Shown here piece after piece: positions 5,392 to 64,000 of a stretch of DNA of 64,000 nt; the stretch's first letter is position 1; every line of letters begins with the position of its first letter. The DNA is taken from the IMG/VR virus record IMGVR_UViG_3300040801_002923, positions 1 through 64,000 of that record; one strand, 5' to 3'. This stretch comes from a virus. The notes below the pieces were generated by a model that was given only the letters and a program-made list of their open reading frames with translations, ran no database searches and was not told the DNA's origin. The translations under genes were made by a program, and so were the position numbers.

Positions 5392-5521
5392 TGGTAACTC
5401 CTTTGATCAAAGTTGTTGTCGTTTGTTCGTAAAACTCGAGTTTATATGTAGCCCGGCGGCTGTATTGATATCTGTTGATTGGTATTTATGGGGTGATGTA
5501 ATTTTTGGGTGAACCGCGCGA

Positions 5522-5755
5522 TTACGCGGCCGGGATTCTGCGAACGCTGGTTGTTAGTTGACGAATAGTATTGTTGAAAGCAACAGGCTCGACGCGTGCA
5601 TTACCGAGGTCGTAGTCATTAACGGCTTCGTCCGTCACGCTGCTAAACACGAACGTTCCTTTGTTGCCATCTTTTGTGATTTCTGTCAGGGTGAAACCAG
5701 ACAGACGGAGGTAGGAAGCAAGTACAATATCGCTAGTCTTGAATACTGGTGTCAC
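5522..5755 (-). CDS. Small protein, DUF5659-like
   Basis: Pattern FKTSDIVLASYLRLSGF...KGTFVF recalls DUF5659 proteins; contiguous with the upstream genes. Confidence 0.55.
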   Translation of the reverse strand: MTPVFKTSDIVLASYLRLSGFTLTEITKDGNKGTFVFSSVTDEAVNDYDLGNARVEPVAFNNTIRQLTTSVRRIPAA

Positions 5756-5764
5756 TCGTAATCC

Positions 5765-20619: not shown

Positions 20620-21008
20620 TACAGACTACCTTCCCCAAATTGGATGTTCAGATTCATTAGATCTGTTACGTCAAGTTCGATGTAGCGTAGTAGTGCGGAC
20701 GCTACTACTGTCCCCTCGTCTGGCGTTGGTATGACGGTTAGACTGATCAACTCAACACGAGGATCAAAGTCAAATACGCCGCGCAGCTCCGATTCCAACG
20801 TGTCGAGTGTGTCCTCATCAAGCGGCTCAAACGCCAGATCTGGGATAATCGTACCAAAACGTGGAAGGCGCAGACGTTCTCCGCGACGCGTGAAGATGTG
20901 GTTGAGGAGGTCCATCTTCACGAGTTCTACGTCGCGGAGTTGGAATGTTCCGTTACGCTCGTATTCGAACGATGAGTAGCCTCTGTACAAGTTTTGGCGC
21001 GTTGTCAT
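20619..21008 (-). CDS. Baseplate wedge protein, gp25-like
   Basis: DLLNHIFTRRGERLRLPRFGTIIPDLAFEP...DPRV signature. Confidence 0.92.
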   Translation of the reverse strand: MTTRQNLYRGYSSFEYERNGTFQLRDVELVKMDLLNHIFTRRGERLRLPRFGTIIPDLAFEPLDEDTLDTLESELRGVFDFDPRVELISLTVIPTPDEGTVVASALLRYIELDVTDLMNLNIQFGEGSL

Positions 21009-21039
21009 AACCGATATTTATCAGGGGGTCGGGGAACCG

Positions 21040-28096: not shown

Positions 28097-30910
28097 ATGA
28101 TTCGATTTACATCGCTCACAGTCAGAAACTTCCTCTCGTATGGGGCGGAGCCTACGGTTATTCCGCTCGAGCGCGTCGGAACGACTCTGATCCTTGGTGA
28201 GGACCTCGATAACACATCAGGAGGCACAGGAGCGAATGGCGTAGGGAAAGCACAACCTCTATACTCAAGAATCAAAACCCCTCGCGGCTGGACCACAATG
28301 GGTGAGATTGCTGTTGGTGATCTAATTACAACCCCCAGCGGCGACGTAGCGGCTGTATCTGGTATCTTTCCTCAAGGAAAGCGACCTGTATATCGGTTAA
28401 CGTTTGCAGATGGGAGAACCGTGGACGCCGATGAAAACCACATTTGGAAAGTCCAATCGCACCGGTGGGGCGGACAAGACACCCGCGGCGAGAAGTTTCT
28501 TACTACAAAACAGCTGATTCGTTTTGTTGAAGAGGCTAAAGAAAAGAAAAAGGCTTGGTACAACATCTCTGTACCGCGGATCAAGCATTGTGATGTACTT
28601 GGAGATGCCGAGCTACCACTCGATCCTTACGTCCTCGGAGCATTACTGGGCGACGGCTGCCTCAGCACACAACAACCCAGATTTTCTACCATGGACCCTA
28701 GCATAGTACAGCTCATGAAGGAGGGGTTAGCTGATACCGATGCGAGTTTCTACAAAGAACAGGCTCAAGCTGATTACAGAATCAACGGCATCGATCTGAT
28801 CGAGATATTGGAAGACCTGTCTCTTCGAGGGACCAAAAGCAACACGAAGTTCATTCCCAGCACATACCTTGAAGGTCCTTCGCTCCAGCAGAAACTTCGC
28901 TTACTTCAAGGATTGTTAGATACCGATGGTACTGTCGGTAAAACCAAAAACATTAGCTTCTCGACGGTCAGTAAACAGCTTGCCGAAGATGTTCAGTACT
29001 TAGTTCGAAGCATTGGTGGGGCAGCGAAGATTACAACACGAGCGCCTCGCTACACGTATAAAGGAGAAGTCAAGCAGGGACAGCTCGCGTATAACGTATC
29101 GATCGACTACCGGTCACCACGGGATCTGTTTACCTTAGATCGCAAGCTTGAGCGGCTAAGTGAAGTCAGTCAGTATGCTGATGCGGGTTTGCGCATCACC
29201 GACATTCAACGCGTCGATGATGTGGAGTGCCAGTGTATTATGATCAATCACCCTGATCATCTATACATCACCGATGAGTTTGTTACGACACACAACACCG
29301 TAATTATCAATGCTCTCACTTATGGTGTATACGATCGACCCGTTTCCAACATCTCCAAAGACAACCTCGTCAATAACGTTAACAAAAAGCACATGGAGGT
29401 GGTTGTTGAGTTCTACAAAGGCGATACCCACTACCTGATCCGTCGCGTCCGTAAAGCTAAGAGCTACGCCGCTGGTAACTATGTAGAACTGTTCGAAAAC
29501 GGCGAGGATATCACTCCCGACAGCGTTGCAAACACAAACAAGCACATTGAGTCGATCATCGGTCTCCCCTATGAACTGTTTGTGCGGATCGTTGTGTTTT
29601 CTGCAACGAATGTTCCTTTTCTCGATCTGCCGGTTCGCAGCCAGACCGGTCCGAACCAGATGGATATCATCGAAGAGCTATTCGACCTGAAGCAACTTGC
29701 TGCACAAGCGAAGGTGCTTAAGGATCAGATCAAAGCCGTCGAGACAACCATCACAACTAAGCAGGAACGTAACGATCTGCTTGAGGCGGAAAAGGCCCGC
29801 CACGATAAACAGCTGCAGTCAGCTAAGACACGCGTCGAGAATTGGGAGAAGGGGCGAACCGCTGATATCGCCGAGCTGCAGCGAAAGCTAGCACGGGTCT
29901 CCCAGGTAGATGTGGACGAGCAGCGACAGCTCCACGAACAACTAATCGAAATTGACGATGAGCTTGAACAAGCCCTGAAGCGTCAACGGGAGCTCGAACG
30001 TGAATTCAAAAAGGTTAGAAAGACCAAATCAACCGCCGAGCATGAGCTTGATCACTATCGCGATGATCGCTGCCCAACGTGTTTGCAGCAGTATGACGGT
30101 GCTAAGGAAAAGATCCACGTCTGTGAAGAGCAGTTAACACACGCCAATGCTGATCTAGAAGGTCTCACAGAGCAGATCGCCAACATCGATCAGCTTGTGG
30201 CAGAATGGGAAGCTAAGCGGACAGAAGTCAAGAATCAGATCACCGTAAGTGATCTGCAGGAGCTGATGGAAACTAAGAGCAAGAGCTCTGAATATCTACG
30301 CCGAATCGAAGAACTTCACAGCGCCGGTAATCCATTTGAAGAACCACTACAGGAACTCCAGGAGGTCGAACTACCCCCTGTAGATCACGACGAAGTCGAT
30401 AAACTAATCACCCAGCGTGATCACATGAAGTTCTTGCTCAAACTGCTAACGCGGAATGATAGCTTCGTGCGTAAGGTCCTACTCAACAAGACTCTACCGT
30501 TCCTCAACAAGCGGCTGCAGCACTATCTGACCAGTCTGGGTCTTGCACATCAGGTTGAGTTTACACACGACATGACTGCGAAGATTACGGAGTTCGGTAG
30601 AGAGATGGACTTCGGTAACCTCTCGAATGGACAACGAGCACGGGTTAATATTGCGTTGTCGTTTGCTTTCAGAGACGTAGTGCAGAGTATGCATACCCGA
30701 ATTAATATCTGTATGCTAGACGAAGTACTAGATGTAGGTTTGGATTCTGTTGGGGTTACAGCTGCAGCTAGGATGATTAAACGAAAGGCACGCGACGAAC
30801 AAATGAGCCTATATATCATCAGCCATAGAGATGAGATTGATAGTGCGTTCGACAGCGTGATGACTGTACAAAAACGAGACGGATTTAGCAGGATTTTTGA
30901 CAATGAATAA
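28097..30910 (+). CDS. Recombination ATPase, gp46/Rad50/SbcC-like, intein-containing
   Basis: RNFLSYG, Walker A GANGVGK|T split by an intein, coiled coil with CPTC zinc hook, LSNGQ signature, LDEVLD Walker B and ISH. Confidence 0.93.
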   Translation: MIRFTSLTVRNFLSYGAEPTVIPLERVGTTLILGEDLDNTSGGTGANGVGKAQPLYSRIKTPRGWTTMGEIAVGDLITTPSGDVAAVSGIFPQGKRPVYRLTFADGRTVDADENHIWKVQSHRWGGQDTRGEKFLTTKQLIRFVEEAKEKKKAWYNISVPRIKHCDVLGDAELPLDPYVLGALLGDGCLSTQQPRFSTMDPSIVQLMKEGLADTDASFYKEQAQADYRINGIDLIEILEDLSLRGTKSNTKFIPSTYLEGPSLQQKLRLLQGLLDTDGTVGKTKNISFSTVSKQLAEDVQYLVRSIGGAAKITTRAPRYTYKGEVKQGQLAYNVSIDYRSPRDLFTLDRKLERLSEVSQYADAGLRITDIQRVDDVECQCIMINHPDHLYITDEFVTTHNTVIINALTYGVYDRPVSNISKDNLVNNVNKKHMEVVVEFYKGDTHYLIRRVRKAKSYAAGNYVELFENGEDITPDSVANTNKHIESIIGLPYELFVRIVVFSATNVPFLDLPVRSQTGPNQMDIIEELFDLKQLAAQAKVLKDQIKAVETTITTKQERNDLLEAEKARHDKQLQSAKTRVENWEKGRTADIAELQRKLARVSQVDVDEQRQLHEQLIEIDDELEQALKRQRELEREFKKVRKTKSTAEHELDHYRDDRCPTCLQQYDGAKEKIHVCEEQLTHANADLEGLTEQIANIDQLVAEWEAKRTEVKNQITVSDLQELMETKSKSSEYLRRIEELHSAGNPFEEPLQELQEVELPPVDHDEVDKLITQRDHMKFLLKLLTRNDSFVRKVLLNKTLPFLNKRLQHYLTSLGLAHQVEFTHDMTAKITEFGREMDFGNLSNGQRARVNIALSFAFRDVVQSMHTRINICMLDEVLDVGLDSVGVTAAARMIKRKARDEQMSLYIISHRDEIDSAFDSVMTVQKRDGFSRIFDNE
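28250..29296 (+). mobile_element. Intein (349 aa) with LAGLIDADG homing endonuclease
   Basis: Starts AQPLYSRIKTP.GW..MGEI.VGD. Block B ADENHIW; LAGLIDADG motifs YVLGALLGDG and LLQGLLDTDG; ends HLYITDEFVTTHN followed by Thr+1. Confidence 0.93.
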
Positions 30911-32795: not shown

Positions 32796-32925
32796 CCCAT
32801 ATAAACGGAAAAATAAAAAGGGCGGAGATTGGGGTGACTTCGAGTCAAGTCTAATCGCCGAAGAGATCAACAATGCCAAGCAGAAGCAAGACGAAAGGAA
32901 ACAAGTTCGAGAACGACATCGTTAA
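32770..32925 (+). CDS. Small basic hypothetical protein (51 aa)
   Basis: ATG 32770 with GAGGA SD; fills the gap before the resolvase gene. Confidence 0.4.
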   Translation: MYYTSGTTDPYKRKNKKGGDWGDFESSLIAEEINNAKQKQDERKQVRERHR

Positions 32926-33493
32926 GGCGTTCAACGACCTACACGAGACCGAAGAGTTTCGTCGCACACCAAACTCCGGTGCAATGATGGGACGCTCGAA
33001 TGCAGCGAAGTACGCAGGCCTCTCTGAGGGTGTGCAGCGCACACTGAGCTCGGACATCATCACGCCCGAATGGTATCCTTTCGCTATTGAGTGCAAGCAT
33101 TACGGCGACAAACCCAACTACGCCGCGATCATCAAAGAGAATGATACGAAACTAGATCATTGGTTAGCTGAAGCTGTTTTTGATGCTGTCAATCAAGACT
33201 TGCATCCGATGCTTTGCTTCAAGACTGACCGAAAAGGAGCTCACGTTGCAATCCCTCAGTACTGGATTAGCGAGCTTCAGATTTATCCGACGTACTATCT
33301 TCAATACGCCAACTCGTTCACAATCATGGGGCTCGAGCAATGGTTGCGCTTCGGTCCTTCGATGATCGAAGAGTCTGGTTATCGTGAGCAAACGCAGCTA
33401 AACAAGCTGACGTGGAAACGACTAGAAGAACTGCGAATGGGGTTCACCGACGTGCATAACGTTGCGGTGATGCTCCAACAACTAGAGAAGTAA
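32873..33493 (+). CDS. Holliday junction resolvase, PD-(D/E)xK (Hjc-like)
   Basis: SKTKGNKFE, RTPNSGA, SDII.P and AIECKH motifs. Confidence 0.85.
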   Translation: MPSRSKTKGNKFENDIVKAFNDLHETEEFRRTPNSGAMMGRSNAAKYAGLSEGVQRTLSSDIITPEWYPFAIECKHYGDKPNYAAIIKENDTKLDHWLAEAVFDAVNQDLHPMLCFKTDRKGAHVAIPQYWISELQIYPTYYLQYANSFTIMGLEQWLRFGPSMIEESGYREQTQLNKLTWKRLEELRMGFTDVHNVAVMLQQLEK

Positions 33494-33860
33494 TACGGAC
33501 CGACTCCCCGGCTATTCAATTAGCGGGGTTGCGAAACTGGGTAGCGCCAGATAGGGCAGTGATGTCCTGGGATCCGTGAGCCTTGAAGCTGCTCGAAAGG
33601 TAACGCGTAAACCGCCCACACTACGAGGTGATGCCTGTAGTTCCATAGTAGTTGTGTGGGAAGCCAAAGGGTGACCGTTTCCTTCAGTACTCGAAGTGTG
33701 TCTGTAAAATAGGGTTTTAATGCGGTACCTCACCGTTAAAGTTTCCCGGTTCTCTGAACCAAAAACTGGGGGGAATTAGAACTGTGTCTGTATTAAGCAA
33801 ATTTTGAAAGACATCCGGATATGCGTATCAAGTGAACGAAGTGAACTGGTACGCATATCG
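33494..33860 (+). ncRNA. Putative structured non-coding RNA or replication-origin element of unknown class
   Basis: Longest intergenic gap in the window. Serial hairpins with G-T wobbles, a GTGA tetraloop stem, a multibranch closing helix and a terminal 13-bp stem. Confidence 0.5.
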
Positions 33861-33871
33861 CGAAGCTACTG

Positions 33872-33901
33872 TTGCTTTGTCCACCCGATTGGCGTTATAA
33901 T
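33872..33901 (+). promoter_or_regulatory. Sigma70-type promoter giving a leaderless helicase mRNA
   Basis: TTGCTT-N18-TATAAT, then 6 nt to ATG 33908; no SD. Confidence 0.7.
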
Positions 33902-33907
33902 CTCTCT

Positions 33908-35518
33908 ATGTCTGATATCCTCTCGTACTGGCCTATGCCAGAATTTACCCCTCGTCCTAACCAGGTTCGTGCACTCGAATGGCTGGCGGAGAACCATGAC
34001 AAGAAATACTTGTTTCTCCAAGCACCGGTTGGTGCAGGTAAATCCCTAATTGGTACCACATACGCTGCCTATCTGCAGGCACAGGCTGGAACCAATCACG
34101 GTAGCTTTATCCTGACACCACAACGGATTCTGCAAGAGCAATATGAGAAGACGTTTGAACGACACTTCGCCGCATCCCTTTACGGTAAAGGGAACTACCC
34201 TTGCAGCAAGGTGAAGTCGACATGTGATGTTGGATCCGTATTGGACAAAGCATGCCCTTCATGTCCGTACAAGCTGGCTAGGGAACAAGCGAAAGCATCA
34301 CAGAACGTCATTCTCAATTACAAGATTGCATTGTTGATGTTCCATTACACAGACGTATGGAAGCCACGCCCTCTCTGTGTACTCGATGAATGCCACACCG
34401 TCGAAGAGTACCTCACCGAGCTAGATGCAGCTGACATTAACCAACACCGTGCAGAGAAATATGGTGTTAAGTGGGCACCACAGACAGATATGCTCGAAGC
34501 AATGGCATGGGTCAAATCGGAATACATTCCGAGAGCTCAGACGTACTACGATGAGCTGTACGGTGAAGTCCAACACCTAATCGAAGGGTATGGAGACGCA
34601 CCGTCAGCTACAGAGGCACGTAAGCTCAAAGAGCTTGGCAGTCTTGGTGAACACCTCGACAACATGCGCGGTATTGTGTATCTCAGTCCGGAAGCTGTCA
34701 AGGACACTTTCGTCATGGTGGCCGACAAGGTATCATTGAAATTCAAACGCATCCACGGCGGCCCTACTTTCCACCAGATCCTAGCACCACAGGCAGATAA
34801 GTTCTTGTTCATGTCGTCGACGATCCTCAACTACAGAGGGTTCTGTAACGATTTGATGATTGACGAGGAGGATGCAGCTTATCTCGACCTCACATCTGAA
34901 TTCCCGGTGGAAAGTAGACCTGTATTCTACATGCCGCAGATGAAGATGAACGCTAAGTGGAAGGATCCCGAAAACGCAAACAACCGCAACAAGATGCTTA
35001 CGCAGATCATCGATCTGTGCAAGATGCACACTGACGAAGATGGTACTCCCCAAAACGGAATCATCCACAGTGGTAACTTCCAGATTGCACAGTGGCTGGT
35101 AGAAGGCCTTGAAGGGAACATTCCTCAGAGAATCTGGCACCATAACCCGGGTAGTGACTTCGATCGGAATGACATCATTAATGGCTTCCAGCGCGCTAGC
35201 GAGCCTTCGCTTCTAATATCGCCGTCCATCACGGAAGGCCTCGACTTGAAGCATGACCTAGCTCGATTTGCTATCTTCGTTAAGATTCCGTTTGGATTCC
35301 TAGGAGATCAGTGGATCAAGAGACGGCTCGAGATGTCACAAGAGTGGTATCAGCGACGGGCACTGATTGATGTTATTCAGGGCGCAGGCCGTGTGGTGCG
35401 CGCCGATGACGACTGGGGGCAGACGTTCATCCTCGACGCATCGTGGGGTTATCTATATCGCTCGACGTCGAAGTACATCCCCGACTGGTGGAAGGATGCA
35501 TATCTCGTTCAAGGCTAA
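33908..35518 (+). CDS. DinG/Rad3-like SF2 helicase with Fe-S cysteines
   Basis: Q motif PRPNQ, APVGAGKS, C..C..CPSCPY, LDECH, SPSITEGLDL and IQGAGRVVR. Confidence 0.9.
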   Translation: MSDILSYWPMPEFTPRPNQVRALEWLAENHDKKYLFLQAPVGAGKSLIGTTYAAYLQAQAGTNHGSFILTPQRILQEQYEKTFERHFAASLYGKGNYPCSKVKSTCDVGSVLDKACPSCPYKLAREQAKASQNVILNYKIALLMFHYTDVWKPRPLCVLDECHTVEEYLTELDAADINQHRAEKYGVKWAPQTDMLEAMAWVKSEYIPRAQTYYDELYGEVQHLIEGYGDAPSATEARKLKELGSLGEHLDNMRGIVYLSPEAVKDTFVMVADKVSLKFKRIHGGPTFHQILAPQADKFLFMSSTILNYRGFCNDLMIDEEDAAYLDLTSEFPVESRPVFYMPQMKMNAKWKDPENANNRNKMLTQIIDLCKMHTDEDGTPQNGIIHSGNFQIAQWLVEGLEGNIPQRIWHHNPGSDFDRNDIINGFQRASEPSLLISPSITEGLDLKHDLARFAIFVKIPFGFLGDQWIKRRLEMSQEWYQRRALIDVIQGAGRVVRADDDWGQTFILDASWGYLYRSTSKYIPDWWKDAYLVQG

Positions 35519-48621: not shown

Positions 48622-50242
48622 CGAAACAACAACAGCATCAACGGATACAACAGTTGCAACTGTACCGTCGGGTTGCATTCTCCTTGGCGACGGTACGATC
48701 AAGTGCCCCGACACAGCTGCATCGGAGGTATGTAAGCCGTGGAAGCTCCAAGAGTCGCGTGATGCATGTATTCAAGAGGATTACGCCAACGAGGCTCTTA
48801 ACATTGGTGGTGCCACGGCGAACGTATTCAAACTACTTGGTGTTCACGAACAAACCAAGCTAGTCGATCAGACAGGTCGCGGTGTCGCGATCTCCGGTGG
48901 CGATATGGGCCAATTCTCTGCCGCAAACGCATTTACGAGCGAATGCACGGTGTGGAGATCAAAGCAACGTGGAGCAAATGTAGTCAGTAAGGCGTACATC
49001 GGCTATGACTTTGGTCCAATTAAAATCACAACAGGTCGTCAGCGCCATGGCGATGCTCGCCCGGAGACCCAGGATGTTTAGACGATCCGCATCAAACAGT
49101 TATCCTCTGCAGCAAACCGTGCGACGCGGATTCGTGTTGAACGATCGCAGGACGGAGAGAGCTGGTTTGGAGTTGAAATTGTGGACCTTGATGATAACGA
49201 TTCGCTACAGACTGTCCACATTCGTCGATCCGTGCCATCACGATTCTGGCGCATTCGTCCTCTGGCGTTTAACGGAGGCGATGGGGACTTTTGGGGTGTT
49301 ACTGCATTAGAACTATCCGACTATGAAGCGACGCGCCTCGACAATATTCAAGATCGTTTGCTGCTAGAAAACCGCAATCGTGATTACAACACCAGTCCCA
49401 TTGTGGTTAAGGTATTCTACGATCTAATCGACGTGCAAACGGAACTGTCGCGATTTGGTATTGAGTTGCCTAGCCAGTCGTACTTCATGACAGCAGGCTT
49501 CAATTCAGTTGTTGAAGCCCTTGGCCGTCCTTTTGTGATTGGTGATATCATTGAGCTACCAAGTGAAACGCAATATTCGGCATCACTTGAACCTGTCAAG
49601 AAGTATCTTGAGGTAATCGACGTTGGTTGGAGCACGGAGGGGTATACGCCAGGGTGGCGCCCAACTCTTCTCAGAATTGTTGCTCAGCCTATGCTGGCAT
49701 CTCAGGAGACGCAGGATATCGTTGGCGACTTTGTGCGCCGGGTCGACGGTGATGGACTATTCAACATCGACGATGGCAACCATCCAATCTTTCAAGATTA
49801 CTCCGAATCGGCTCAGACGATTGATGCTATCTCACGCAACGAACACAACGTACCACAGCGCGGTGCTGATGCGAGTAACGAGCTTCGACAATTTAGTCAA
49901 GAAGAGCTCCAAAAAGCTGAGGATGCTGGCATTAACATTCAGAAGCTTTCATACAACCCGAACAGTGTGTACATCGAAGATGCGGTCCCACCAAATAACG
50001 AAGATTTCACCATGGGGGACACATTTCCGGAAAATCCTTCCGATGGTGATTATCACCGCCTAACTTTCAGCGGGGTTGAGGATCCACCTCCCGCGCAACT
50101 TTGGCGGTATTCAGCACAGAAGATGCGCTGGGGTTGGCTCGAGACAGATCGCCGTGCAGAGTTTGATGGTACGCGTAAAAAGCTCCAGGAGTTTATCACC
50201 CACCCGAATGCGGTTCCTGTAAACAAGAATCTTGAAGACTAA
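48614..50242 (+). CDS. Neck protein gp14-like with an inserted F5/8 (discoidin)-like domain, interrupted by one in-frame TAG at 49079-49081
   Basis: ORFs 48614-49081 and 49181-50242 share a frame and only one TAG separates them. YIGYDFG...TIRIKQ...VERSQDGESW...RFWRIRP spans the stop. IQDRLLLENRNRDY, ELSRFGI and GDIIELP are gp14-like. Confidence 0.75.
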
Positions 50243-50251
50243 ATAGTCTTC

Positions 50252-51028
50252 ATGACAAACGTTGCACAAGACCCAACATTCTTCTACGACGAGCAGATTC
50301 GCCGTAATGTACTGCAGTTCATGGCGATCTTCTCCAACATGTACGTTGAGTTCGGCGCCAAGGGCGATCGCGAACCTGGACTAGTTCCTGTATTCCTCAC
50401 ATACGGCCACCGCGATCGGGTTGTCGCTCATATCAAAAGTGACAACACTCAGAACAAACCTTTACGTTTGCCAGCTATGGCTGCAAATCTAACTTCAATC
50501 AGCATGGCACCTGATCGAGCTAAGGGGCAGCAGTCAACAAGACGAGATACGTATCTCAAGAATCAGGGTGTACTTCCTGATGATGTCAGAACGATATACC
50601 AGCGCATGCCTGTTCCGTATGATTTCAACTTTGAGTTGTCCATCTACACAACGAACTACGACGAGCACTGGCAAATACTAGAACAGATTCTAACGATTTT
50701 CGATCCCTCGCTTTCGATTCAGACCAGCACCGATACGTTCGACTGGACGAAGATCAAACAGGTTGATCTCGTTGGAATTGGTCCAGAGCAAAATTACCCA
50801 TCAGGACCAGAACGTCGAATTATCGTGACGACACTTGCGTTTGTTGTGAAAGGTTGGCTGTCGTTGCCTTCGAATGTTCGTGATAACGTTATCCGAAGTA
50901 TTCAACTTCGTGTTGGAATCGTTAGCGATCTTGATGCTCCATCATCCGATATCATAGCGGAAATCGATGCTGGTGGCTTTGACTACAACAGCCAATTCGA
51001 TTTCAGCGAAGACGTTGATTTGCAGTAA
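50252..51028 (+). CDS. Tail terminator / sheath stabiliser, gp15-like
   Basis: FFYDEQIRR..QF..IFSN, RLPAM and MPVPYDFNFELSIYT...QILEQILTIFDP motifs. Confidence 0.88.
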   Translation: MTNVAQDPTFFYDEQIRRNVLQFMAIFSNMYVEFGAKGDREPGLVPVFLTYGHRDRVVAHIKSDNTQNKPLRLPAMAANLTSISMAPDRAKGQQSTRRDTYLKNQGVLPDDVRTIYQRMPVPYDFNFELSIYTTNYDEHWQILEQILTIFDPSLSIQTSTDTFDWTKIKQVDLVGIGPEQNYPSGPERRIIVTTLAFVVKGWLSLPSNVRDNVIRSIQLRVGIVSDLDAPSSDIIAEIDAGGFDYNSQFDFSEDVDLQ

Positions 51029-54612: not shown

Positions 54613-54654
54613 ATTTGTTAGAACACGCTTTTTTACTGAACACTAAATAACCGC

Positions 54655-55773
54655 ATGGCTCTAGATCCTCGCTCATTTCTCACTAATCCTGTGGTCCGCC
54701 AGGTAGCCAACGCTGTGCCTGGCGGTGACCTAGTTATTCAAGCCGTAGACACAGTCCAGGACTTCCGTGATAACGGGGTGGACTTTAAGAACGGACGCCT
54801 GACAATCGGCAGTCCGTCACCATACGCAGTTGATTTAGTGGCTAGAGCTCCTAAGCACAAGTTCATGTTCGTACTGCAAGTGGTTATCGATGGGCCGTTT
54901 CAGCAACTGTTCCCTGAATCGCTGCTTGAAGAGATGGCCTTCGTGGTTAAGCGAGCAGGTCGTCCTAATGTTTCGTTCGACTACGAGGAAGTAAACTTCT
55001 ACAACCATCGATCCAAAGTACTGAAGCGGATTGAATACCAACCAATCACAATCGGCTTCTACGATGACATGAACAGCAACGTTCTTTCGTTTCTTGAGCG
55101 GTATCTTGCAGTAACGTCTCCGATTTCACGTCTTGGCGATAAAGGGCAAGTATACAAGCTGTTTGAAGAGAGCGGTATGAACTCACCGAACGACTTTGCG
55201 TCCGCATCTACGGATGGCTTCGCTCGTGTGCCCGGCGTTACGGATACTGACACATCGATCATCAGCTATATCAATCTCTTTCATATCTATAACGGTGGCT
55301 CGCTAGTGGATCAATACACGTTCGCTAAACCCAAGATCACAGAAATTCAGTTGGATGATGTTGATATGACAATGTCTGGAGACGGCACAGAGGCTGCGTT
55401 TACCTTCTCATACGAAGCACTTGGAATCCAGACACGCATTCGAGCTGCTGAGCTTCGCAATCGAATTCAAGATTACACGGATGCAGGCCTACATACGCTC
55501 AATCTACCACGCTCGCTCAACACACCCCTATCTACTGGTGGTGTATTCGGTGCAGCTGGTCCTGGTGACGTCATTCGCGAAACCGCCCGTGATATTGCTT
55601 CTGATGCGCTATCCGGTGCGGCGCTAGGAGGTGCAATTGGCGGCGCTATTGGAGGTGTCGGTGGTGCTATCCAGGCTGGGGTTGGTACAGCAACCAACGT
55701 CGTAGGAAACGCTGTTTCAGATCTTCTTGGTATTGGTGGCGACGATCAAGCCAACTCGGATAATTTCGACTAA
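54655..55773 (+). CDS. Tube-fold protein (gp19/gp54-like)
   Basis: PKHKFMF, VKRAGRPNVSF...NFYN...IEYQPITIGFYDD and TFSYE motifs; Gly-rich tail. Confidence 0.7.
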   Translation: MALDPRSFLTNPVVRQVANAVPGGDLVIQAVDTVQDFRDNGVDFKNGRLTIGSPSPYAVDLVARAPKHKFMFVLQVVIDGPFQQLFPESLLEEMAFVVKRAGRPNVSFDYEEVNFYNHRSKVLKRIEYQPITIGFYDDMNSNVLSFLERYLAVTSPISRLGDKGQVYKLFEESGMNSPNDFASASTDGFARVPGVTDTDTSIISYINLFHIYNGGSLVDQYTFAKPKITEIQLDDVDMTMSGDGTEAAFTFSYEALGIQTRIRAAELRNRIQDYTDAGLHTLNLPRSLNTPLSTGGVFGAAGPGDVIRETARDIASDALSGAALGGAIGGAIGGVGGAIQAGVGTATNVVGNAVSDLLGIGGDDQANSDNFD

Positions 55774-55784
55774 ATAGACTCGCT

Positions 55785-56219
55785 ATGGCGAGATCATATA
55801 AGCAAGGTGTATTCACACCGCGACATCCAGAGAAATATGTAGGCAACGCGAATAATATCGTGTTCCGCAGTTCATGGGAGCTTTCCATGAACCAGTTTCT
55901 AGATAACAACCCCAACATTCTTCGCTGGAGTTCCGAAGAGATCGCCATACCGTACGTTAAACCTACCACCGGACGCGTGCACCGCTACTTCCCTGACTAT
56001 TGGATCGAGTATAAGGACCGTGATGGCAATTTGCTTCAGGAAATACTCGAGGTAAAGCCAAGTACGGAAGTTAACCCTAATCTCAAGAAACGCAAATCCA
56101 ACTACGATAAGCTCACCTATGCAATCAACCTTGCAAAGTGGAAAGCAGCCTCTCAGTTTTGCGAGAAGCGGAACATGAAGTTTAGAATCCTAACCGAAAA
56201 CCAGTTGTTCAGCCGCTAG
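55785..56219 (+). CDS. Head completion nuclease, T4 gp4-like
   Basis: FTPRHPEKYVG, FRSSWE, WSSEEIAIPY, RYFPD, EVKP and KWKAA...FRILTE motifs. Confidence 0.92.
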   Translation: MARSYKQGVFTPRHPEKYVGNANNIVFRSSWELSMNQFLDNNPNILRWSSEEIAIPYVKPTTGRVHRYFPDYWIEYKDRDGNLLQEILEVKPSTEVNPNLKKRKSNYDKLTYAINLAKWKAASQFCEKRNMKFRILTENQLFSR

Positions 56220-56229
56220 TAAATACAAC

Positions 56230-56706
56230 ATGAGCAGCAAAAAAGAAATCGAAGTACCTACATCGCATCCTCTAGAGGCTGTACTTAACGTAGAGGAGGG
56301 GACTACTATGGTCCCTAAAACCATCATCCAGGGTGATGTTGAGCCGCACCAAACCTATGACGAGAAAGACATTGAGATCGATAAGCAGTTTCAAGAGATT
56401 TACGATCTAGCGTTGACTGCGTTCGAAGATCAAACAGAAACGGCTGAAATTGTAGACCCCCAGTACAAGGCCCGCACAGCTGAAGTTGCAGCAGCTTATC
56501 TAACCACCGCTCTCAACGCCGCGAATTCCAAAATGGCACTCAAGCAACAACGCGAGAAGCTAGAGGTGTCCAAGTCTCGTATTACCGGTGGCATCACAAA
56601 CAATGGCAACATGATTGTCACCAATCGTAATGACCTCCTGCGATTGATGGAAGAAAGGGACGGCGAGCGCGACGCAATCGAAGGTGAGTTTTCCTCCGAC
56701 GAGTAA
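56230..56706 (+). CDS. Terminase small subunit (putative)
   Basis: Directly upstream of terL; ARTAEVAA..L..AL.A and TNN...NRNDLL pattern. Confidence 0.75.
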   Translation: MSSKKEIEVPTSHPLEAVLNVEEGTTMVPKTIIQGDVEPHQTYDEKDIEIDKQFQEIYDLALTAFEDQTETAEIVDPQYKARTAEVAAAYLTTALNAANSKMALKQQREKLEVSKSRITGGITNNGNMIVTNRNDLLRLMEERDGERDAIEGEFSSDE

Positions 56707-56736
56707 CCCCTTGGTTTTGGGTATGTAAATACTCAC

Positions 56737-58290
56737 ATGTCACGAGCATTCAAAGATCCGCAAATCAAACGCGCCGGAACCGAGACGGAATATACCGTCG
56801 AGCAGATCCGTGAGTTAAAGAAGTGCATGAACGATCCGGTGTACTTTATCCGGACATACTGCCGAATTCAGCACCCCGTCGAAGGCGCTATTCCGTTTGA
56901 GCTCTACGACTATCAAATTGAGATGGTCGAGAACTTCCACAATCACAGAAACAACATCGTTCTTAGTGCACGGCAGACTGGTAAGTCGACTGTCTCTTCG
57001 ATGTACCTGCTGTGGTTTGCTATGTTCAATTTCGACAAGACAATTCTCATTGCGTCGAATAAGAACAAAGGTGCGATGGAAATGATCGCTCGTATTCAGT
57101 ATGCATACAAGAACCTCCCGCACTGGCTAAAGCCGGGAGTAACTGACGATGGTTGGAACAAGCACTCACTAAAGTTTGACAACGACAGTGAAATTCAGTC
57201 TGAAGCGACGTCGGAGAATTCTGGTCGTGGTATGTCTATCTCCCTACTCTACCTCGATGAGTTTGCGTTTGTTCCCCCAGCTGTAGCTCAAGAATTCTGG
57301 ACAGCCATTGCGCCTACGTTGTCTACAGGTGGTGCTTGTATCATTTCTTCTACACCAAACGGCGATCAAAACATCTTCTCTGAGCTGTGGAACGGTGCTG
57401 AAATGGGAGTAAACAACTTCCATCCTTCTCATGTGCGCTGGGATCAACCACCGGGGCGCACTAAAGCGTTCAAGGAAGACATGATTGCGCAGATTGGTGA
57501 AACGGCCTGGCTGCAAGAATACGAGTGTGAGTTCCTATCATCCGATGCGCTGCTGATCGACACACTTGTTCTTCAGAACTTGACGCCTGGCATATCCAAG
57601 ATCAAACCAGACTTCGAGATCAATGATGTTAAGTTCTGGAAAAGACCACAGAGTGGTGTGCAATACCTTGTTGGAGTTGATCCAGCTACTGGTACCGGCG
57701 AAGACTTCACTGTGATTACTGTTTGGGAATTTCCAGCGATGGAACAAGTGGCTATGTATCGTTCGAATACGATGTCGTCGGCCAAAGTGTATCCGATTCT
57801 CAAGAACCTACTGAAGTTCTTGGAGCGCACTGGGTCGCAGGTCTACTTCTCAATCGAAAACAATGGTGTTGGTGAGGGCCTTCTAGCACTGTATGAAGCA
57901 GACGAAAACCCACCTCTGATGTCCGAAATGATTTCTGAAACGGGCAAGAATCGTCAAGGCGTAACTACGACGGGCAAGTCTAAGATGCGTTGCTGTCTCA
58001 ATCTCAAGGAATTGATTGAGAAGCGAACGATGACAATTAAAAGCGAGCTGATGCTCAAAGAGTTGAAGAAATTCGTTCGTCGCGCGGCTGGGTATTCAGC
58101 ACAAAACGGGGCAACCGACGACATCATTTCTTCAACACTAATCGTCCTTCGAATTCTCGAAGAAATCTCCTCGTATGACCAAGCGGCCTTTGATACGCTC
58201 CGTGCAGTTGAGGACAGTCCGTGGTCCGAAGCTGACGTCATTCACTACGACGAAGAAGACCCTGATCACGGACCTATGCCTTTCATCTAG
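56737..58290 (+). CDS. terL: Terminase large subunit, gp17-like
   Basis: ARQTGKS Walker A, LLYLDEFAFV Walker B, SSTPNG, QEYECEF, GVDPATGTGED, IENN and DD motifs. Confidence 0.96.
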   Translation: MSRAFKDPQIKRAGTETEYTVEQIRELKKCMNDPVYFIRTYCRIQHPVEGAIPFELYDYQIEMVENFHNHRNNIVLSARQTGKSTVSSMYLLWFAMFNFDKTILIASNKNKGAMEMIARIQYAYKNLPHWLKPGVTDDGWNKHSLKFDNDSEIQSEATSENSGRGMSISLLYLDEFAFVPPAVAQEFWTAIAPTLSTGGACIISSTPNGDQNIFSELWNGAEMGVNNFHPSHVRWDQPPGRTKAFKEDMIAQIGETAWLQEYECEFLSSDALLIDTLVLQNLTPGISKIKPDFEINDVKFWKRPQSGVQYLVGVDPATGTGEDFTVITVWEFPAMEQVAMYRSNTMSSAKVYPILKNLLKFLERTGSQVYFSIENNGVGEGLLALYEADENPPLMSEMISETGKNRQGVTTTGKSKMRCCLNLKELIEKRTMTIKSELMLKELKKFVRRAAGYSAQNGATDDIISSTLIVLRILEEISSYDQAAFDTLRAVEDSPWSEADVIHYDEEDPDHGPMPFI

Positions 58291-60677: not shown

Positions 60678-60692
60678 CGCTAAATACGATCC

Positions 60693-61241
60693 ATGGAACT
60701 CAAAGTAATCCGTGGTGACCGTCTACTGACTCAATTCAACGAAGACTCTACGTACAACCAACTATACACTGGGATTGTTCAGGCTTTCCCCAACACACGA
60801 AAGCGGCAGAATGCCACAGCTCCGGTTGTGGTTAGTCGTATTGAATATGTCCCGTATGTGAACAACGGTGTGCTACGGGTTGAAGCCGAAGCCCGCAATG
60901 GTCCCGGTCGATATCAACCCGTTATACAGTTTCGTGAAGTGAGCTTTGCAGAACAGGGAGCTAGTAACACCGTCACATTTAGAGCAGCAGACGGTCAGGA
61001 GTATGGCATCGTACCTATCCGTCTAGCGGGGTCAAATATCAAAGTTCGTTGCACGTGTCTCGACTTCTATCACAGATTCAGCATGCACAACCACTCTGAC
61101 GGTAGTTTAGCGGGCAATCCCCCACCTCCGTACGTTCCGAAGGGTGGGCGGCCATCGGTTAATCCAACGCAAACGCCCGGTGTGTGCAAACACATAATTA
61201 AGCTAGTAGAGCAGCTCAAGCGAGCTAGAATCGTTACTTAA
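60693..61241 (+). CDS. Phage protein with a SWIM-like zinc-binding motif
   Basis: VRCTCLDF...PGVCKHI; TAAATA 6 nt upstream. Confidence 0.7.
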   Translation: MELKVIRGDRLLTQFNEDSTYNQLYTGIVQAFPNTRKRQNATAPVVVSRIEYVPYVNNGVLRVEAEARNGPGRYQPVIQFREVSFAEQGASNTVTFRAADGQEYGIVPIRLAGSNIKVRCTCLDFYHRFSMHNHSDGSLAGNPPPPYVPKGGRPSVNPTQTPGVCKHIIKLVEQLKRARIVT

Positions 61242-63600: not shown

Positions 63601-64000
63601 ATGTCAGGAGTAGTCCTACTAAGACCAGTTGGTGGCGGCGGATCAGGAACGTCAAATATCACGATCAGTACGATTAACGGCCAGCTGGTACCTACATTTC
63701 AGGACACCACACGTTCAAAGCAGCTTAGCGTTACAGATCACCCAGTTGTGTGGTCTGAAAATAGGCTACGCGACCGCGATTGGCTAAATATTGGTAATGC
63801 CGTCGATGCTGTGAGTGGTTATATTGCTGACCTCAATGGAACAATTGTGAGTGCCGTTGCACAATGTGAGAGCACAGGAGTTGCGGAAAAGGAAATCCAC
63901 GTGTTCGTAAATGGCACAGATCAGGGAAGTTTGGGTATTTTAGGTCCGGGAACTGGAGTGACCTTTATAAATACATCAACAGACATTGACTTTAACCAAG
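63601..64000 (+). CDS. 5' part of a hypothetical beta-rich protein, truncated by the window edge
   Basis: AAGG SD, ATG 63601, frame open to the end (MSGVVLLRPVGGGGSG...). Confidence 0.65.
   Translation, partial: MSGVVLLRPVGGGGSGTSNITISTINGQLVPTFQDTTRSKQLSVTDHPVVWSENRLRDRDWLNIGNAVDAVSGYIADLNGTIVSAVAQCESTGVAEKEIHVFVNGTDQGSLGILGPGTGVTFINTSTDIDFNQ

Follow-up and report, generated by a model that had tools for sequence, protein, structure and literature searches.

The 64,000-nt stretch of viral DNA analysed here (the window) holds, between a junction-resolvase gene and the predicted promoter of a helicase gene, a non-coding element that is conserved in place and strand in related loci, and in which at least eight predicted helices are kept by compensatory changes. 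Because its hairpins are maintained by compensating mutations and no known family was matched, the element is probably a new non-coding RNA, belonging to a new family of structured RNA tied to the resolvase–helicase module. The first-pass annotation had offered an unclassified phage ncRNA as one reading, and this description holds as far as can be judged from sequence, the element being conserved, covarying, non-coding and absent from Rfam, with pairing that favours the + strand. Its parts and neighbours, from 5′ to 3′, are:

32873..33493, + strand: upstream gene, 206 aa, PDDEXK_15 nuclease (Pfam PF24608, E 1.3e-23; phrog_244, E 1.5e-19)
33494-33866 (~370 nt), + strand: structured element, non-coding, with the PDDEXK nuclease gene on one side and the DinG/XPD-like helicase gene on the other
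33495..33577, + strand: domain 1, closing stem P2 (33495-33499 with 33573-33577) around three hairpins
33506..33528, + strand: hairpin H1, lower stem CCCC/GGGG, bulged G at 33510, upper stem GCTA/TAGC, loop TTCAAT
33537..33550, + strand: hairpin H2, CTGG/CCAG, limited to the window's subgroup, 90% paired
33553..33568, + strand: hairpin H3, AGGGCA-GTGA-TGTCCT, limited to the window's subgroup
33578..33594, + strand: hairpin Px, GAGC/GCTC, 81% paired in the 5-sequence alignment; 7/7 pairs changed on both sides in the family model
33595..33704, + strand: middle region with a weak predicted stem, 33615-33621/33654-33660, 63.6% paired
33705..33760, + strand: 3′ core hairpins, 33705-33710/33714-33719 (weak), GCGGT-ACCTC-ACCGT at 33722-33736 and GGTTC-TCT-GAACC at 33748-33760
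33768..33792, + strand: G-run block GGGGGGAATTAG and tail ACTGTGTCTGTA, conserved, G columns invariant
33793..33817, + strand: A+T-rich linker between the G block and the long hairpin, poorly conserved in the alignment
33818..33859, + strand: long 3′ hairpin, 13 bp, C-GAA-G apex at 33837-33841, arms 33818-33830/33847-33859, 92% complementary
33860..33866, + strand: mini-hairpin GCGAAGC, the family motif N-CGAAG-N′, closing pair 100% paired (5 sequences)
33872..33901, + strand: promoter-like site, TTGCTT-18 nt-TATAAT, with the helicase ATG 6 nt 3′ of TATAAT
33908..35518, + strand: DinG/XPD-like helicase gene (Pfam Helicase_C_2, ResIII, DEAD, DEAD_2; phrog_2488, E 8e-103)

The distinguishing trait of the element is its single fixed place, between a Holliday-junction resolvase gene and the predicted promoter of an iron-sulphur-type helicase gene. 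The neighbours had been named as a resolvase and a DinG-like helicase, which is reasonable given the Pfam and PHROG matches and the four invariant cysteines of the helicase (C99, C106, C116 and C119); the PHROG label of the 206-aa gene is RusA-like Holliday junction resolvase, and an SbcC-like gene is also among the neighbours. The gap extends from the upstream stop codon, which ends 1 nt 5′ of the element, as far as the helicase ATG at 33908. In relatives the upstream position is taken by PDDEXK_15, as in the window, or by RuvC, and a resolvase-type gene of one kind or the other lies one to three genes 5′ of the element in 11 of the 18 relatives' loci tested; the resolvase is swapped between two unrelated nuclease folds with the place unchanged. 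The gap is indeed non-coding, but its earlier ranking as the longest gene-free gap depends on the ORF cut-off: at ≥100 aa it is the second largest uncovered stretch in the window (378 nt), at ≥80 aa the third largest, and at ≥60 aa it is mostly covered by a mechanical 73-aa minus-strand ORF and an 81-aa plus-strand ORF that starts with TTG.

No conserved ORF was found among 14 members, whose longest frames (38–114 codons) vary in strand and frame. The 85 differences between the window and its closest relative, L003, are spread over the codon phases as 28/32/25, without codon periodicity. The minus-strand 73-aa ORF, singled out in the first pass as a potential conserved protein, is not conserved even in L003, where the DNA is 79% identical, and has no Pfam or PHROG match; the minus-strand ORFs of relatives are unlike it, with a common stretch of only 10 aa (E 0.027).

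The Infernal search against Rfam that had been suggested was run and matched no family. We used the 4227 models of Rfam 15, which include GOLLD, ROOL, T-box, RNase P, tmRNA, 6S, group I/II introns and small ribozymes; none matched the window at gathering score, and with E up to 10 the sole match in 33300-34000 was snoZ163 (E 6, minus strand). ARAGORN found no tRNA or tmRNA genes in the window, in agreement with the earlier remark that hallmarks of tRNA, tmRNA, RNase P and introns are absent. There was no relevant Rfam match in 11 member loci, nor in the cultured phages XacN1, Xoo-sp13 and RAS14. Resemblances to the T-box core, 5S rRNA, the 11-nt tetraloop receptor and the T-loop were considered and dropped, since the Rfam models fail or the columns covary as ordinary helices. 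A blastn search of 33000-34400 against 50,697 phage records gave no match. Among public sequencing runs, those listed with the sequence are three DNA runs from one microbial-mat study (shares ≤0.22), and none is an RNA run. A literature search found nothing on the element, and in the main text of the XacN1 paper the words helicase, non-coding, ncRNA, intergenic and promoter do not occur.

Searches with blastn, nhmmer and two covariance models turned up recognisable versions of the element at 18 further loci, viral or metagenomic, with position and strand unchanged; the window included, there are 19 distinct loci. Model R1 has 15 matches, every one of them on the strand of the helicase. When the RNA motif alone was used for scanning, with the G-run block as pattern, 37 places were returned, of which three were on contigs already known; when the 34 new ones were compared with the models, one proved a true member (L180), and its neighbour is a helicase, 46% identical. 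The window itself matches the 3′ core model weakly (E 0.42) and the domain-1 model only locally (E 0.0018). The check on related intergenic regions proposed in the first pass shows the element to be conserved and its stems to covary beyond all shuffles.

The individual stems were assessed on a 5-sequence MAFFT alignment not fitted to any model. All 59 pairs, comprising the stems of the first pass and those added here, are standard pairs in the window. Six of the first-pass stems show compensatory changes, one is weak, and one is displaced by a better-supported local hairpin. Within domain 1, TACGGA/TCCGTG is paired in 94.7% of cells with three of five pairs changed on both sides, and the P2-type helix of the wider family has five of six pairs so changed; the CCCCGGCTA/TAGCGGGG and CTGG/CCAG stems are 92.5% and 90% paired, CTGA/TCAG standing in place of H2 in L040 and L080. 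By columns AGGGCA/TGTCCT reaches 63.6%, L040 and L080 being one column off yet pairing when read directly; their H3 has another stem that still pairs, with the loops GTTG and ATTG, so the GNRA loop ascribed to this hairpin is not conserved. Further 3′, GCGGT/ACCGT is 80% paired with two pairs changed on both sides, and the 13-bp stem is 69–80% paired, both partners being changed in 9 of 11 pairs. The stem CCCACAC/GTGTGGG is present but weak (63.6% paired). CCCGGTT/AACTGGG had to be given up: it is 64.3% paired compared with 58.9% when shuffled, and 77 of 500 shuffles were as good. It is replaced by GGTTC/GAACC (33748-33760), with 94.4% of cells paired and all five pairs changed on both sides.

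Hairpin H1 is the most conserved feature of the family; across 20 model matches its upper stem and loop are nearly invariant and its lower stem covaries. It occurs as a single copy in the 118-kb record, and by pattern in 8 of 37 upstream regions scanned, counting the window. The middle region contains a conserved block, TAGTTCCATAGTAG (33638-33651), and the pyrimidine block GTTTCCTTCAG (33677-33687). The long 3′ hairpin is present at the 3′ position in all 16 members folded, and in L003 its stem sequence is wholly different with pairing kept; the segment 33818..33859 of the window gives z -3.02 in folding energy. The tandem AGTGAAC noted in its loop is there in the window and is not kept in L003. 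TGTGTCTGTA occurs, as had been stated, in exactly two copies (33697 and 33783), which are not general in the family, and AAGTGAAC stands in tandem in the window. Several further pairings were rejected. For the pyrimidine block with the G block, duplexes are plausible in most of 16 members, with z from -2.4 to +1.0 relative to shuffles, which is no improvement on chance; subgroup B moreover has a competing local hairpin, in which five pairs are compensated between L002 and L028. The 5′ end can instead pair over 10 bp with 33786-33795, with partial compensation in L003, but this pairing is not family-wide, and P2 was kept for this reason. The motif CTRTGTCTG, considered as a mimic of the helicase start, is confined to the window and L003.

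Covariation was counted on three alignments, with 500 shuffles for each, and in no case did a shuffle score as high. In the 3′ core (three hairpins, 15 sequences), 92.5% of cells are paired compared with 69.7% in shuffles, 14 of 18 pairs are changed on both sides, and the covariation score is 0.615 against 0.216, with slid controls at ≤0.128; in domain 1 (20 matches) the values are 85.9% compared with 70.4%, 19 of 22 pairs, and 0.250 against 0.097, both of these alignments being fitted to their model with a possible bias. For the window's own stems on the 5-sequence MAFFT alignment, 79.1% of cells are paired compared with 68.0%, 27 of 59 pairs are changed on both sides and the score is 0.346 against 0.185, the structure here being read from one of the alignment's own rows. 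The sequences behind these counts are few and related.

The + strand is also indicated by the kind of non-Watson–Crick pair. The 3′ core has 195 Watson–Crick cells, 39 G-U and 7 A-C, and this excess of G-U over A-C favours the + strand, bearing out the argument made in the first pass from G-T pairs. G-U makes up 15% of pairs, two such pairs being nearly invariant. Folding energies, also proposed as a check, are modestly better than shuffles on the + strand of the window, by about 2 sd (z -2.13, 3/100 shuffles as good; z -2.57, 0/30), and not on the minus strand (z 0.00 and -0.42). As a family signal, whole-element folding energy was set aside as weak and mixed: among 11 members, four have z < -2 on the + strand and three on the minus strand. 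The 3′ module has a mean z of -2.46, with 8 of 16 members below -2.

The promoter-like site next to the element would give a leaderless helicase mRNA. TATAAT-N5-8-ATG occurs once in the window, at the helicase start; a -10-like hexamer 6–9 nt 5′ of the ATG, without a Shine–Dalgarno sequence, is found in 15 of 16 members, and most have -35 hexamers of the TTGAT type. A consensus scan for sigma-70-type promoters (-35 and -10 hexamers spaced by 16–18 nt) did not call the site, though its TATAAT is exact, because the first hexamer is weak. AACAAYTAGA was rejected as a general promoter motif, being not enriched (10 found, 7 expected). For the RNA itself no promoter or terminator was found, and 33000-34200 contains no intrinsic terminator (a G+C-rich hairpin followed by a T run).

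Our preferred reading, a new family of structured RNA, can be put as follows. The RNA would be co-transcribed with the upstream resolvase operon, as there is no room for a promoter after the stop codon in the window and L003, and the long hairpin and mini-hairpin may set or protect its 3′ end. The helicase would be expressed separately from its own promoter as a leaderless mRNA. We envisage the RNA as a stable, protein-binding ncRNA of the replication–recombination module, with the H1 loop TTNRAT, the GTTACCG loop of other subgroups and the G-run block as candidate contact sites; its function is our guess, proposed from gene order only.

In the main rival reading the element acts as DNA, in the manner of a replication origin or priming element. 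Its + strand would become single-stranded, either when it is the template for lagging-strand synthesis or when an R-loop displaces it, and would then fold. The long hairpin and the C-GNA-G mini-hairpins would then form an initiation signal for a phage primase or helicase, and the A+T-rich linker would be an unwinding region. We regard this as unlikely, although most of the 16 folded members do carry a C-GNA-G triloop (GCGAAGC, CCGAAGG or ACGAAGT type) at the tip of the hairpin, the closing pair of N-CGAAG-N′ covaries (G-C in three of five sequences, A-U in two), an A+T-rich stretch lies between G block and hairpin, SbcC-like, resolvase and helicase genes adjoin, the 3′ module folds well, and compensatory changes with a G-T excess suit a folded + strand of DNA as well as RNA. 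The length of over 300 nt, the ten or more helices, the invariant loops and the 15% G-U make up the usual picture of an RNA, whereas known single-strand initiation signals are short. In addition, the element is always oriented like the flanking genes, and iterons are absent; direct repeats amount to two 10–14-nt copies and a tandem 8-mer and, like the two copies of TGTGTCTGTA, are not general in the family. The GC-skew check suggested for an origin, a weak test on a phage fragment, showed no switch near 33.5 kb. GCGAAGC is barely enriched in the window (16 copies, 9.7 expected); as many are seen in 4 of 100 shuffles, and this slight excess was rejected as a window-wide signal.

The mini-hairpins in question are of the GCGNAGC type, in which a short stem carries a GNA triloop with a C-G closing pair, and they are described as having exceptional stability in DNA form and far less as RNA (PMC13037366). 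The sequence is found here as GCGAAGC at 33860-33866 and as the C-GAA-G apex at 33837-33841. Hairpins of the GCGAAGC/CCGAAGG type lie, as here, near replication genes at the G4 complementary-strand origin with its primase site, at RSF1010 ssiA and at the N4 early promoters (PMC13037366). Only the last 50–70 nt of the element are like these signals, the other 300 nt being without a counterpart in those described. No N4-like virion RNA polymerase was seen among the eight large window proteins scanned. If the DNA reading were true, the element would be the first structured priming or origin signal for this phage group in the literature found.

A cis-acting role within the operon mRNA is distinctly unlikely in our view. 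As a structured 3′ UTR the element might terminate, process or stabilise the mRNA of the resolvase while insulating the promoter of the helicase; as a long leader it might block translation of read-through transcripts. Its start 0–25 nt past the upstream stop codon would fit, as would the strong 3′-end hairpin in 16 of 16 members and, in subgroups B and C, H1 followed by three or four U, which is suggestive of a terminator only and resembles the isolated, terminator-like hairpins seen in other phages. The helicase gene has a promoter-like site of its own and lacks a Shine–Dalgarno sequence, and an internal AUG on read-through RNA would therefore be translated poorly. However, no terminator-like site was called in the window, and a stabiliser or insulator needs no 300 nt or more with loops invariant across helicases that are 46–57% identical. 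No conserved helix contains the start codon of the helicase, and a 13-nt complement between 33483-33495 and 33896-33908, at the helicase start, was discarded as it is lost in L003. Finally, that the gap has no functional element, its stems being chance products of a spacer or its true content a small unrecognised protein gene, is very improbable and close to refuted. The window's fold is only about 2 sd beyond shuffles, and mechanical 73- and 81-aa ORFs overlap the gap; yet 19 loci share its sequence blocks and helices, the compensatory changes exceed those of all shuffles, and neither a conserved ORF nor codon periodicity in the substitutions is seen.

Returning to a structured RNA, few large ones are known to us in phages, and none with a settled function. 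GOLLD and ROOL are large phage-associated structured RNAs of unknown function; like the present element they combine many helices over several hundred nt with conserved loops and have no known job. The element differs in being smaller, in being fixed beside a helicase gene and in matching no Rfam model, and we know of no description of GOLLD or ROOL in a fixed position next to one gene. ColE1 RNA II and T4 oriF/oriG are primer or R-loop RNAs at origins, structured or promoter-driven and, like the element, beside replication–recombination genes. The G-run of the element and the A+T-rich stretch downstream could favour a stable RNA–DNA hybrid, as in those RNAs; there is no sequence likeness.

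In the Xanthomonas phages XacN1 and Xoo-sp13 and the Stenotrophomonas phage RAS14, an unannotated region of 700–870 nt lies 5′ of the helicase gene, in the same place and strand. It is conserved, both partners being changed in 27 of the 97 pairs predicted, and contains a 13-bp long-range helix of a C-run with a G-run. A promoter-like site is next to it, as in the window, and its GCG-AGTTAC-CGC hairpin resembles the GTTACCG loop of the window's relatives; GCG-N0-2-GTTACCG is found in the element of all three cultured phages and in four other matches (three distinct places) in 0.99 Mb, both strands. Unlike the element of the window, the region is about twice as long and lacks H1, and the helicase has a leader with a Shine–Dalgarno sequence. 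With filters off, neither covariance model gave a match at E <0.01 in the three phages or in 10–12 other gap-bearing loci; L045 has a match at E 0.017 in the right place. From motif order only, the region is probably related to the element.

A bolder and rather doubtful proposal is a new large structured RNA class common to a jumbo myovirus clade, from uncultured microbial-mat phages to XacN1, Xoo-sp13 and RAS14, that takes part in replication–recombination. In one version the RNA would define an origin, with the G-run and 3′ hairpins setting an R-loop or priming site that is processed by the neighbouring XPD/DinG-like helicase and the junction resolvase; in another it would be an RNA subunit bound by the helicase. 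That an RNA, or a folded strand of DNA, takes part in how jumbo phages replicate or recombine is a testable hypothesis, and the probable larger counterpart in cultured phages opens it to bench work. For a new family entry, the alignments and both covariance models can serve as a seed.

H1 also has counterparts away from the element. Six loci (L061, L083, L095, L108, L129 and L134) carry stand-alone intergenic hairpins with the same 17-nt upper hairpin, bulged G and TTNAAT loop; their lower stem covaries and model R2 matches them at E 1e-4 to 1e-2. These hairpins follow stop codons in other viral contigs and are sometimes repeated within a contig; as kin of an RNA kind they count in favour of the RNA reading. 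They differ from the element in being about 45 nt long and in leading into a U-rich tail and then the ribosome-binding site of the gene that comes next, with the helicase and the rest of the element absent. Scanning viral contigs for the H1 pattern gave at least 118 places, mostly chance or coding matches (for example those reading Met-Ala-Ile-Glu-Leu-Ala); among the matches listed, what was left comprised six contigs already known as members and nine loci with a stand-alone hairpin.

The element, a putative structured RNA, is bordered by a resolvase-type gene and a helicase gene:

32873–33493, + strand: upstream gene, 206 aa, Pfam PDDEXK_15, PHROG label RusA-like resolvase; its stop codon borders the gap
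33494–33866, + strand: the element
ATG at 33908, + strand: DinG/XPD-like helicase, 536 aa, Helicase_C_2, DEAD_2 and phrog_2488, with four invariant cysteines

The element is present as a single copy in its own record, which carries myovirus genes (baseplate, portal, major head and sheath; Pfam/PHROG). This record, whose initial 64 kb form the window, is 118,481 bases long and is rated 34% complete by CheckV, which points to a jumbo phage. The description of the gap as the longest gene-free stretch, made in the first-pass annotation, holds only loosely, as the largest stretch free of ORFs ≥80 aa is 5392–5764 (373 nt). ARAGORN found no tRNA or tmRNA in the window, Rfam 15 gave no matches over the whole window at gathering scores, and a search of 33300–34000 with E up to 10 returned solely a snoRNA model (E 6).

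A total of 44 loci came from scanning contigs of viral and metagenomic origin. The closest cultured relatives of the helicase (41–43% identity) belong to the Xanthomonas phages Xoo-sp13 and XacN1 and the Stenotrophomonas phages CM1 and RAS14. Among the 31 rows with sufficient upstream DNA and a helicase ≥38% identical, 28 have more than 300 nt ahead of the helicase without + strand ORFs ≥70 aa; where the helicase is 28–30% identical the gap is ≤134 nt (7/7 loci). L003 is the nearest relative, with a helicase 72% identical and gap DNA 79% identical over 405 nt. With a profile made from ten gap sequences, together with the covariance models R1 for the 3′ core and R2 for domain 1 (P2, which is the closing stem, plus hairpins H1 and Px), we recognised the element in 19 distinct loci, the window included, a count of loci in which ten are seeds and so match by construction and some records possibly come from one virus. 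The other 18 are L003, L040, L080, L015, L012, L001, L002, L007, L025, L028, L029, L033, L131, L016, L017, L019, L023 and L180. All 15 R1 matches lie on the helicase strand. Searching viral contigs for nothing but the G-block motif returned 37 places; when the 34 new ones were put to R1 and R2, one was a true member (L180), with a helicase 46% identical directly behind.

Every stem originally named can be written on the window sequence, and both copies of the reported repeat TGTGTCTGTA are exact. Against dinucleotide shuffles, the + strand fold gave z −2.13 (3/100 shuffles as good) and, in a second run, −2.57 (0/30), and the − strand fold 0.00 and −0.42. Folding is thus better than shuffles by about 2 sd on the + strand but not on the − strand, which taken alone is weak; z fell below −2 in 4/11 members on the + strand and 3/11 on the − strand. 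A structure drawn on 8 sequences aligned with MAFFT was the basis of R1, to which its 15 matches were then realigned. In these model-fitted alignments, whose counts lean towards the structure, 92.5% of 253 cells in the 3′ core were paired compared with 69.7% in shuffles, both sides had changed in 14 of 18 pairs, and the covariation score was 0.615 against 0.216 (0/500 shuffles as high; slid controls ≤0.128); domain 1 (20 R2 matches) gave 85.9% against 70.4%, changes on both sides in 19/22 pairs, and a score of 0.250 compared with 0.097 in shuffles (0/500 as high). Because of this fitting, an unfitted count was made on the window's subgroup, five sequences simply aligned with MAFFT, with the structure read from one row. 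The window's stems were 79.1% paired against 68.0% shuffled, both sides had changed in 27 of 59 pairs against 12.5, and the score was 0.346 against 0.185 (0/500 as high; slid controls ≤0.083). Of the stems originally named, TACGGA/TCCGTG, the H1 hairpin, CTGG/CCAG, AGGGCA/TGTCCT, GCGGT/ACCGT and the 13-bp stem were supported; CCCACAC/GTGTGGG was weakly supported in the unfitted count, and CCCGGTT/AACTGGG found no support and gives way to GGTTC/GAACC, with 5/5 pairs compensated.

Pair cells of the 3′ core comprise 195 Watson–Crick, 39 G-U and 7 A-C, and the fold is therefore assigned to the + strand, as had been preferred from the sequence. The 3′ module at the end of the element (long hairpin and mini-hairpin) folded better than shuffles, with a mean z of −2.46 on the + strand and −1.81 on the − strand. 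No conserved ORF was found across the element. Substitutions between the window and L003 fall 28/32/25 by codon phase, with no codon periodicity, and the minus-strand ORF that might have indicated a protein is not conserved, those of the window and L003 being unrelated. The parts of the family run 5′ to 3′ as follows:

1, + strand: two small 5′ hairpins, in some subgroups only
2, + strand: P2 (33495–33499/33573–33577) enclosing H1 (33506–33528), with two additional hairpins inside in the window's subgroup; in H1 the lower stem covaries, a G is bulged, the upper stem is GCTA/TAGC and the loop TTNRAT
3, + strand: Px (33578–33594)
4, + strand: variable middle region, containing the block TTCCGTAGTAG
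5, + strand: three hairpins (3′ core, 33705–33760), one with a TAGR loop and one with a GTTACCG loop
6, + strand: A-rich joint, then the G-run block (33768–33792)
7, + strand: A+T-rich linker
8, + strand: long hairpin of 8–22 bp (16/16 members folded), apex mostly C-GAA-G or C-GCA-G
9, + strand: N-CGAAG-N′ mini-hairpin, closing pair covarying

In the window, the counterpart of the GTTACCG-loop hairpin is short and its loop reads ACCTC. CTRTGTCTG-like words stand at 33696–33704, 33782–33790 and 33906–33914, the third spanning the helicase start codon; L003 has an identical G-to-A change in both internal copies, and the words are absent from the other members examined.

With covarying stems, no Rfam match and no conserved ORF, the 'unclassified phage ncRNA' of the first-pass annotation is the best-fitting reading, and we consider it fairly probable that the element is a structured RNA, read from the + strand, that belongs to a new family. 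It is rated a putative new family: no known RNA family fits, and literature searches found no description. The sequence occurred in no RNA run among public sequencing runs. Such an RNA would be transcribed together with the resolvase operon, since in the window and L003 P2 follows the upstream stop codon too closely to leave space for a promoter; it may end at the 3′ hairpins or be protected by them, and its loops, being near-invariant, may be recognised by a protein or tertiary contact. That the element instead acts at the DNA level, as an origin or priming element, is the main rival and seems to us unlikely. In its favour, displaced or lagging + strand DNA would give an identical compensatory pattern, and GCGNAGC-type mini-hairpins, according to PMC13037366 extraordinarily stable as DNA, much weaker as RNA, and known at the G4 primase site, RSF1010 ssiA and N4 hairpin promoters, are present and adjoined by an A+T-rich stretch. 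The element's size, its invariant G-U pairs, its constant co-orientation with the genes and the lack of a GC-skew turn speak against this rival.

A third reading, a cis-acting messenger element, we hold to be less likely still.

A promoter-like site directly follows the element. Since a −10-like hexamer stands 6–9 nt 5′ of the helicase ATG, without a Shine–Dalgarno sequence, in 15/16 members (window 33872–33910 included), the helicase is probably made from its own leaderless mRNA, and the element is probably not its normal leader. TATAAT-N5-8-ATG occurs at one place in the window, ahead of the helicase. XacN1-type phages instead have a helicase leader with a Shine–Dalgarno sequence. The pattern TAAATA-N4-9-ATG was found nine times in the window against 1.4 expected (0/100 shuffles reach 9):

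972–985, − strand
21006–21020, − strand
50240–50254
54644–54657
55771–55787
56220–56232
56726–56739
60681–60695
63785–63799

In at least five of the nine, the ATG is where a long ORF starts, in some cases a structural gene. The sites resemble the −10 element of T4-like late promoters, and their placement looks as if it would make late mRNAs leaderless or nearly so.

For the structured RNA, we infer a link to the helicase and resolvase from gene order only. We surveyed 23 upstream ORFs from the loci of 18 relatives. PDDEXK_15 lies upstream of the element in the window, L003 and L015, and RuvC in L001, L002, L028, L033, L016, L017, L039, L013 and L030; no family was found for the remaining 12 of the 23, two of which are zinc ribbons. 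As read from these sequences, the order resolvase–element–helicase is conserved despite an exchanged resolvase fold, and with either RuvC or PDDEXK_15 at one place, the putative junction resolvase has undergone non-orthologous replacement. An SbcC-like gene (28097–30910, + strand) has a LAGLIDADG/homing-endonuclease domain at residues 265–338, and the splitting of its PHROG hits around this domain suggests an intein. In L023:810–2000 the helicase frame is open for ~400 codons 5′ of the point where the alignment begins (query residue 42), which suggests an insertion near the N-terminus, perhaps an intein.

Three cultured phages have 700–870 unannotated bases 5′ of the helicase:

L004:1747–2450, Xoo-sp13
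L005:1760–2450, XacN1
L006:1636–2460, RAS14

R1 and R2 were not found in these regions, Rfam gave nothing on them, and the XacN1 paper leaves its region unmentioned. Aligned together, they have a large conserved fold (97 predicted pairs, 27 compensated) in which a C-run and a G-run separated by ~450 nt form a 13-bp helix. It also has GAAA tetraloops and a GCG-AGTTAC-CGC hairpin, and a TTGAC-type promoter-like site is present. The GCG-N0-2-GTTACCG motif is present in the window's relatives and 3/3 cultured phages; in the rest of 0.99 Mb, both strands, it is limited to 4 rows, which represent 3 distinct places. We infer that the cultured-phage region may be a distant, larger homologue of the element. 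XacN1's annotated ORF313 (53 aa, opposite strand) falls inside the structured region.

Among the matches listed, the 17-nt H1 hairpin also recurs by itself at intergenic sites of other viral contigs:

L061:701
L083:701
L095:701 and ~975
L108:701
L129:301
L134:301, − strand

It caps a covarying G+C stem, is preceded by a C-rich run and followed by a U-rich tail and GGGT; it may represent a hairpin module in common use, either terminator-like or protein-binding. In the second copy in L095 the upper stem is compensated.
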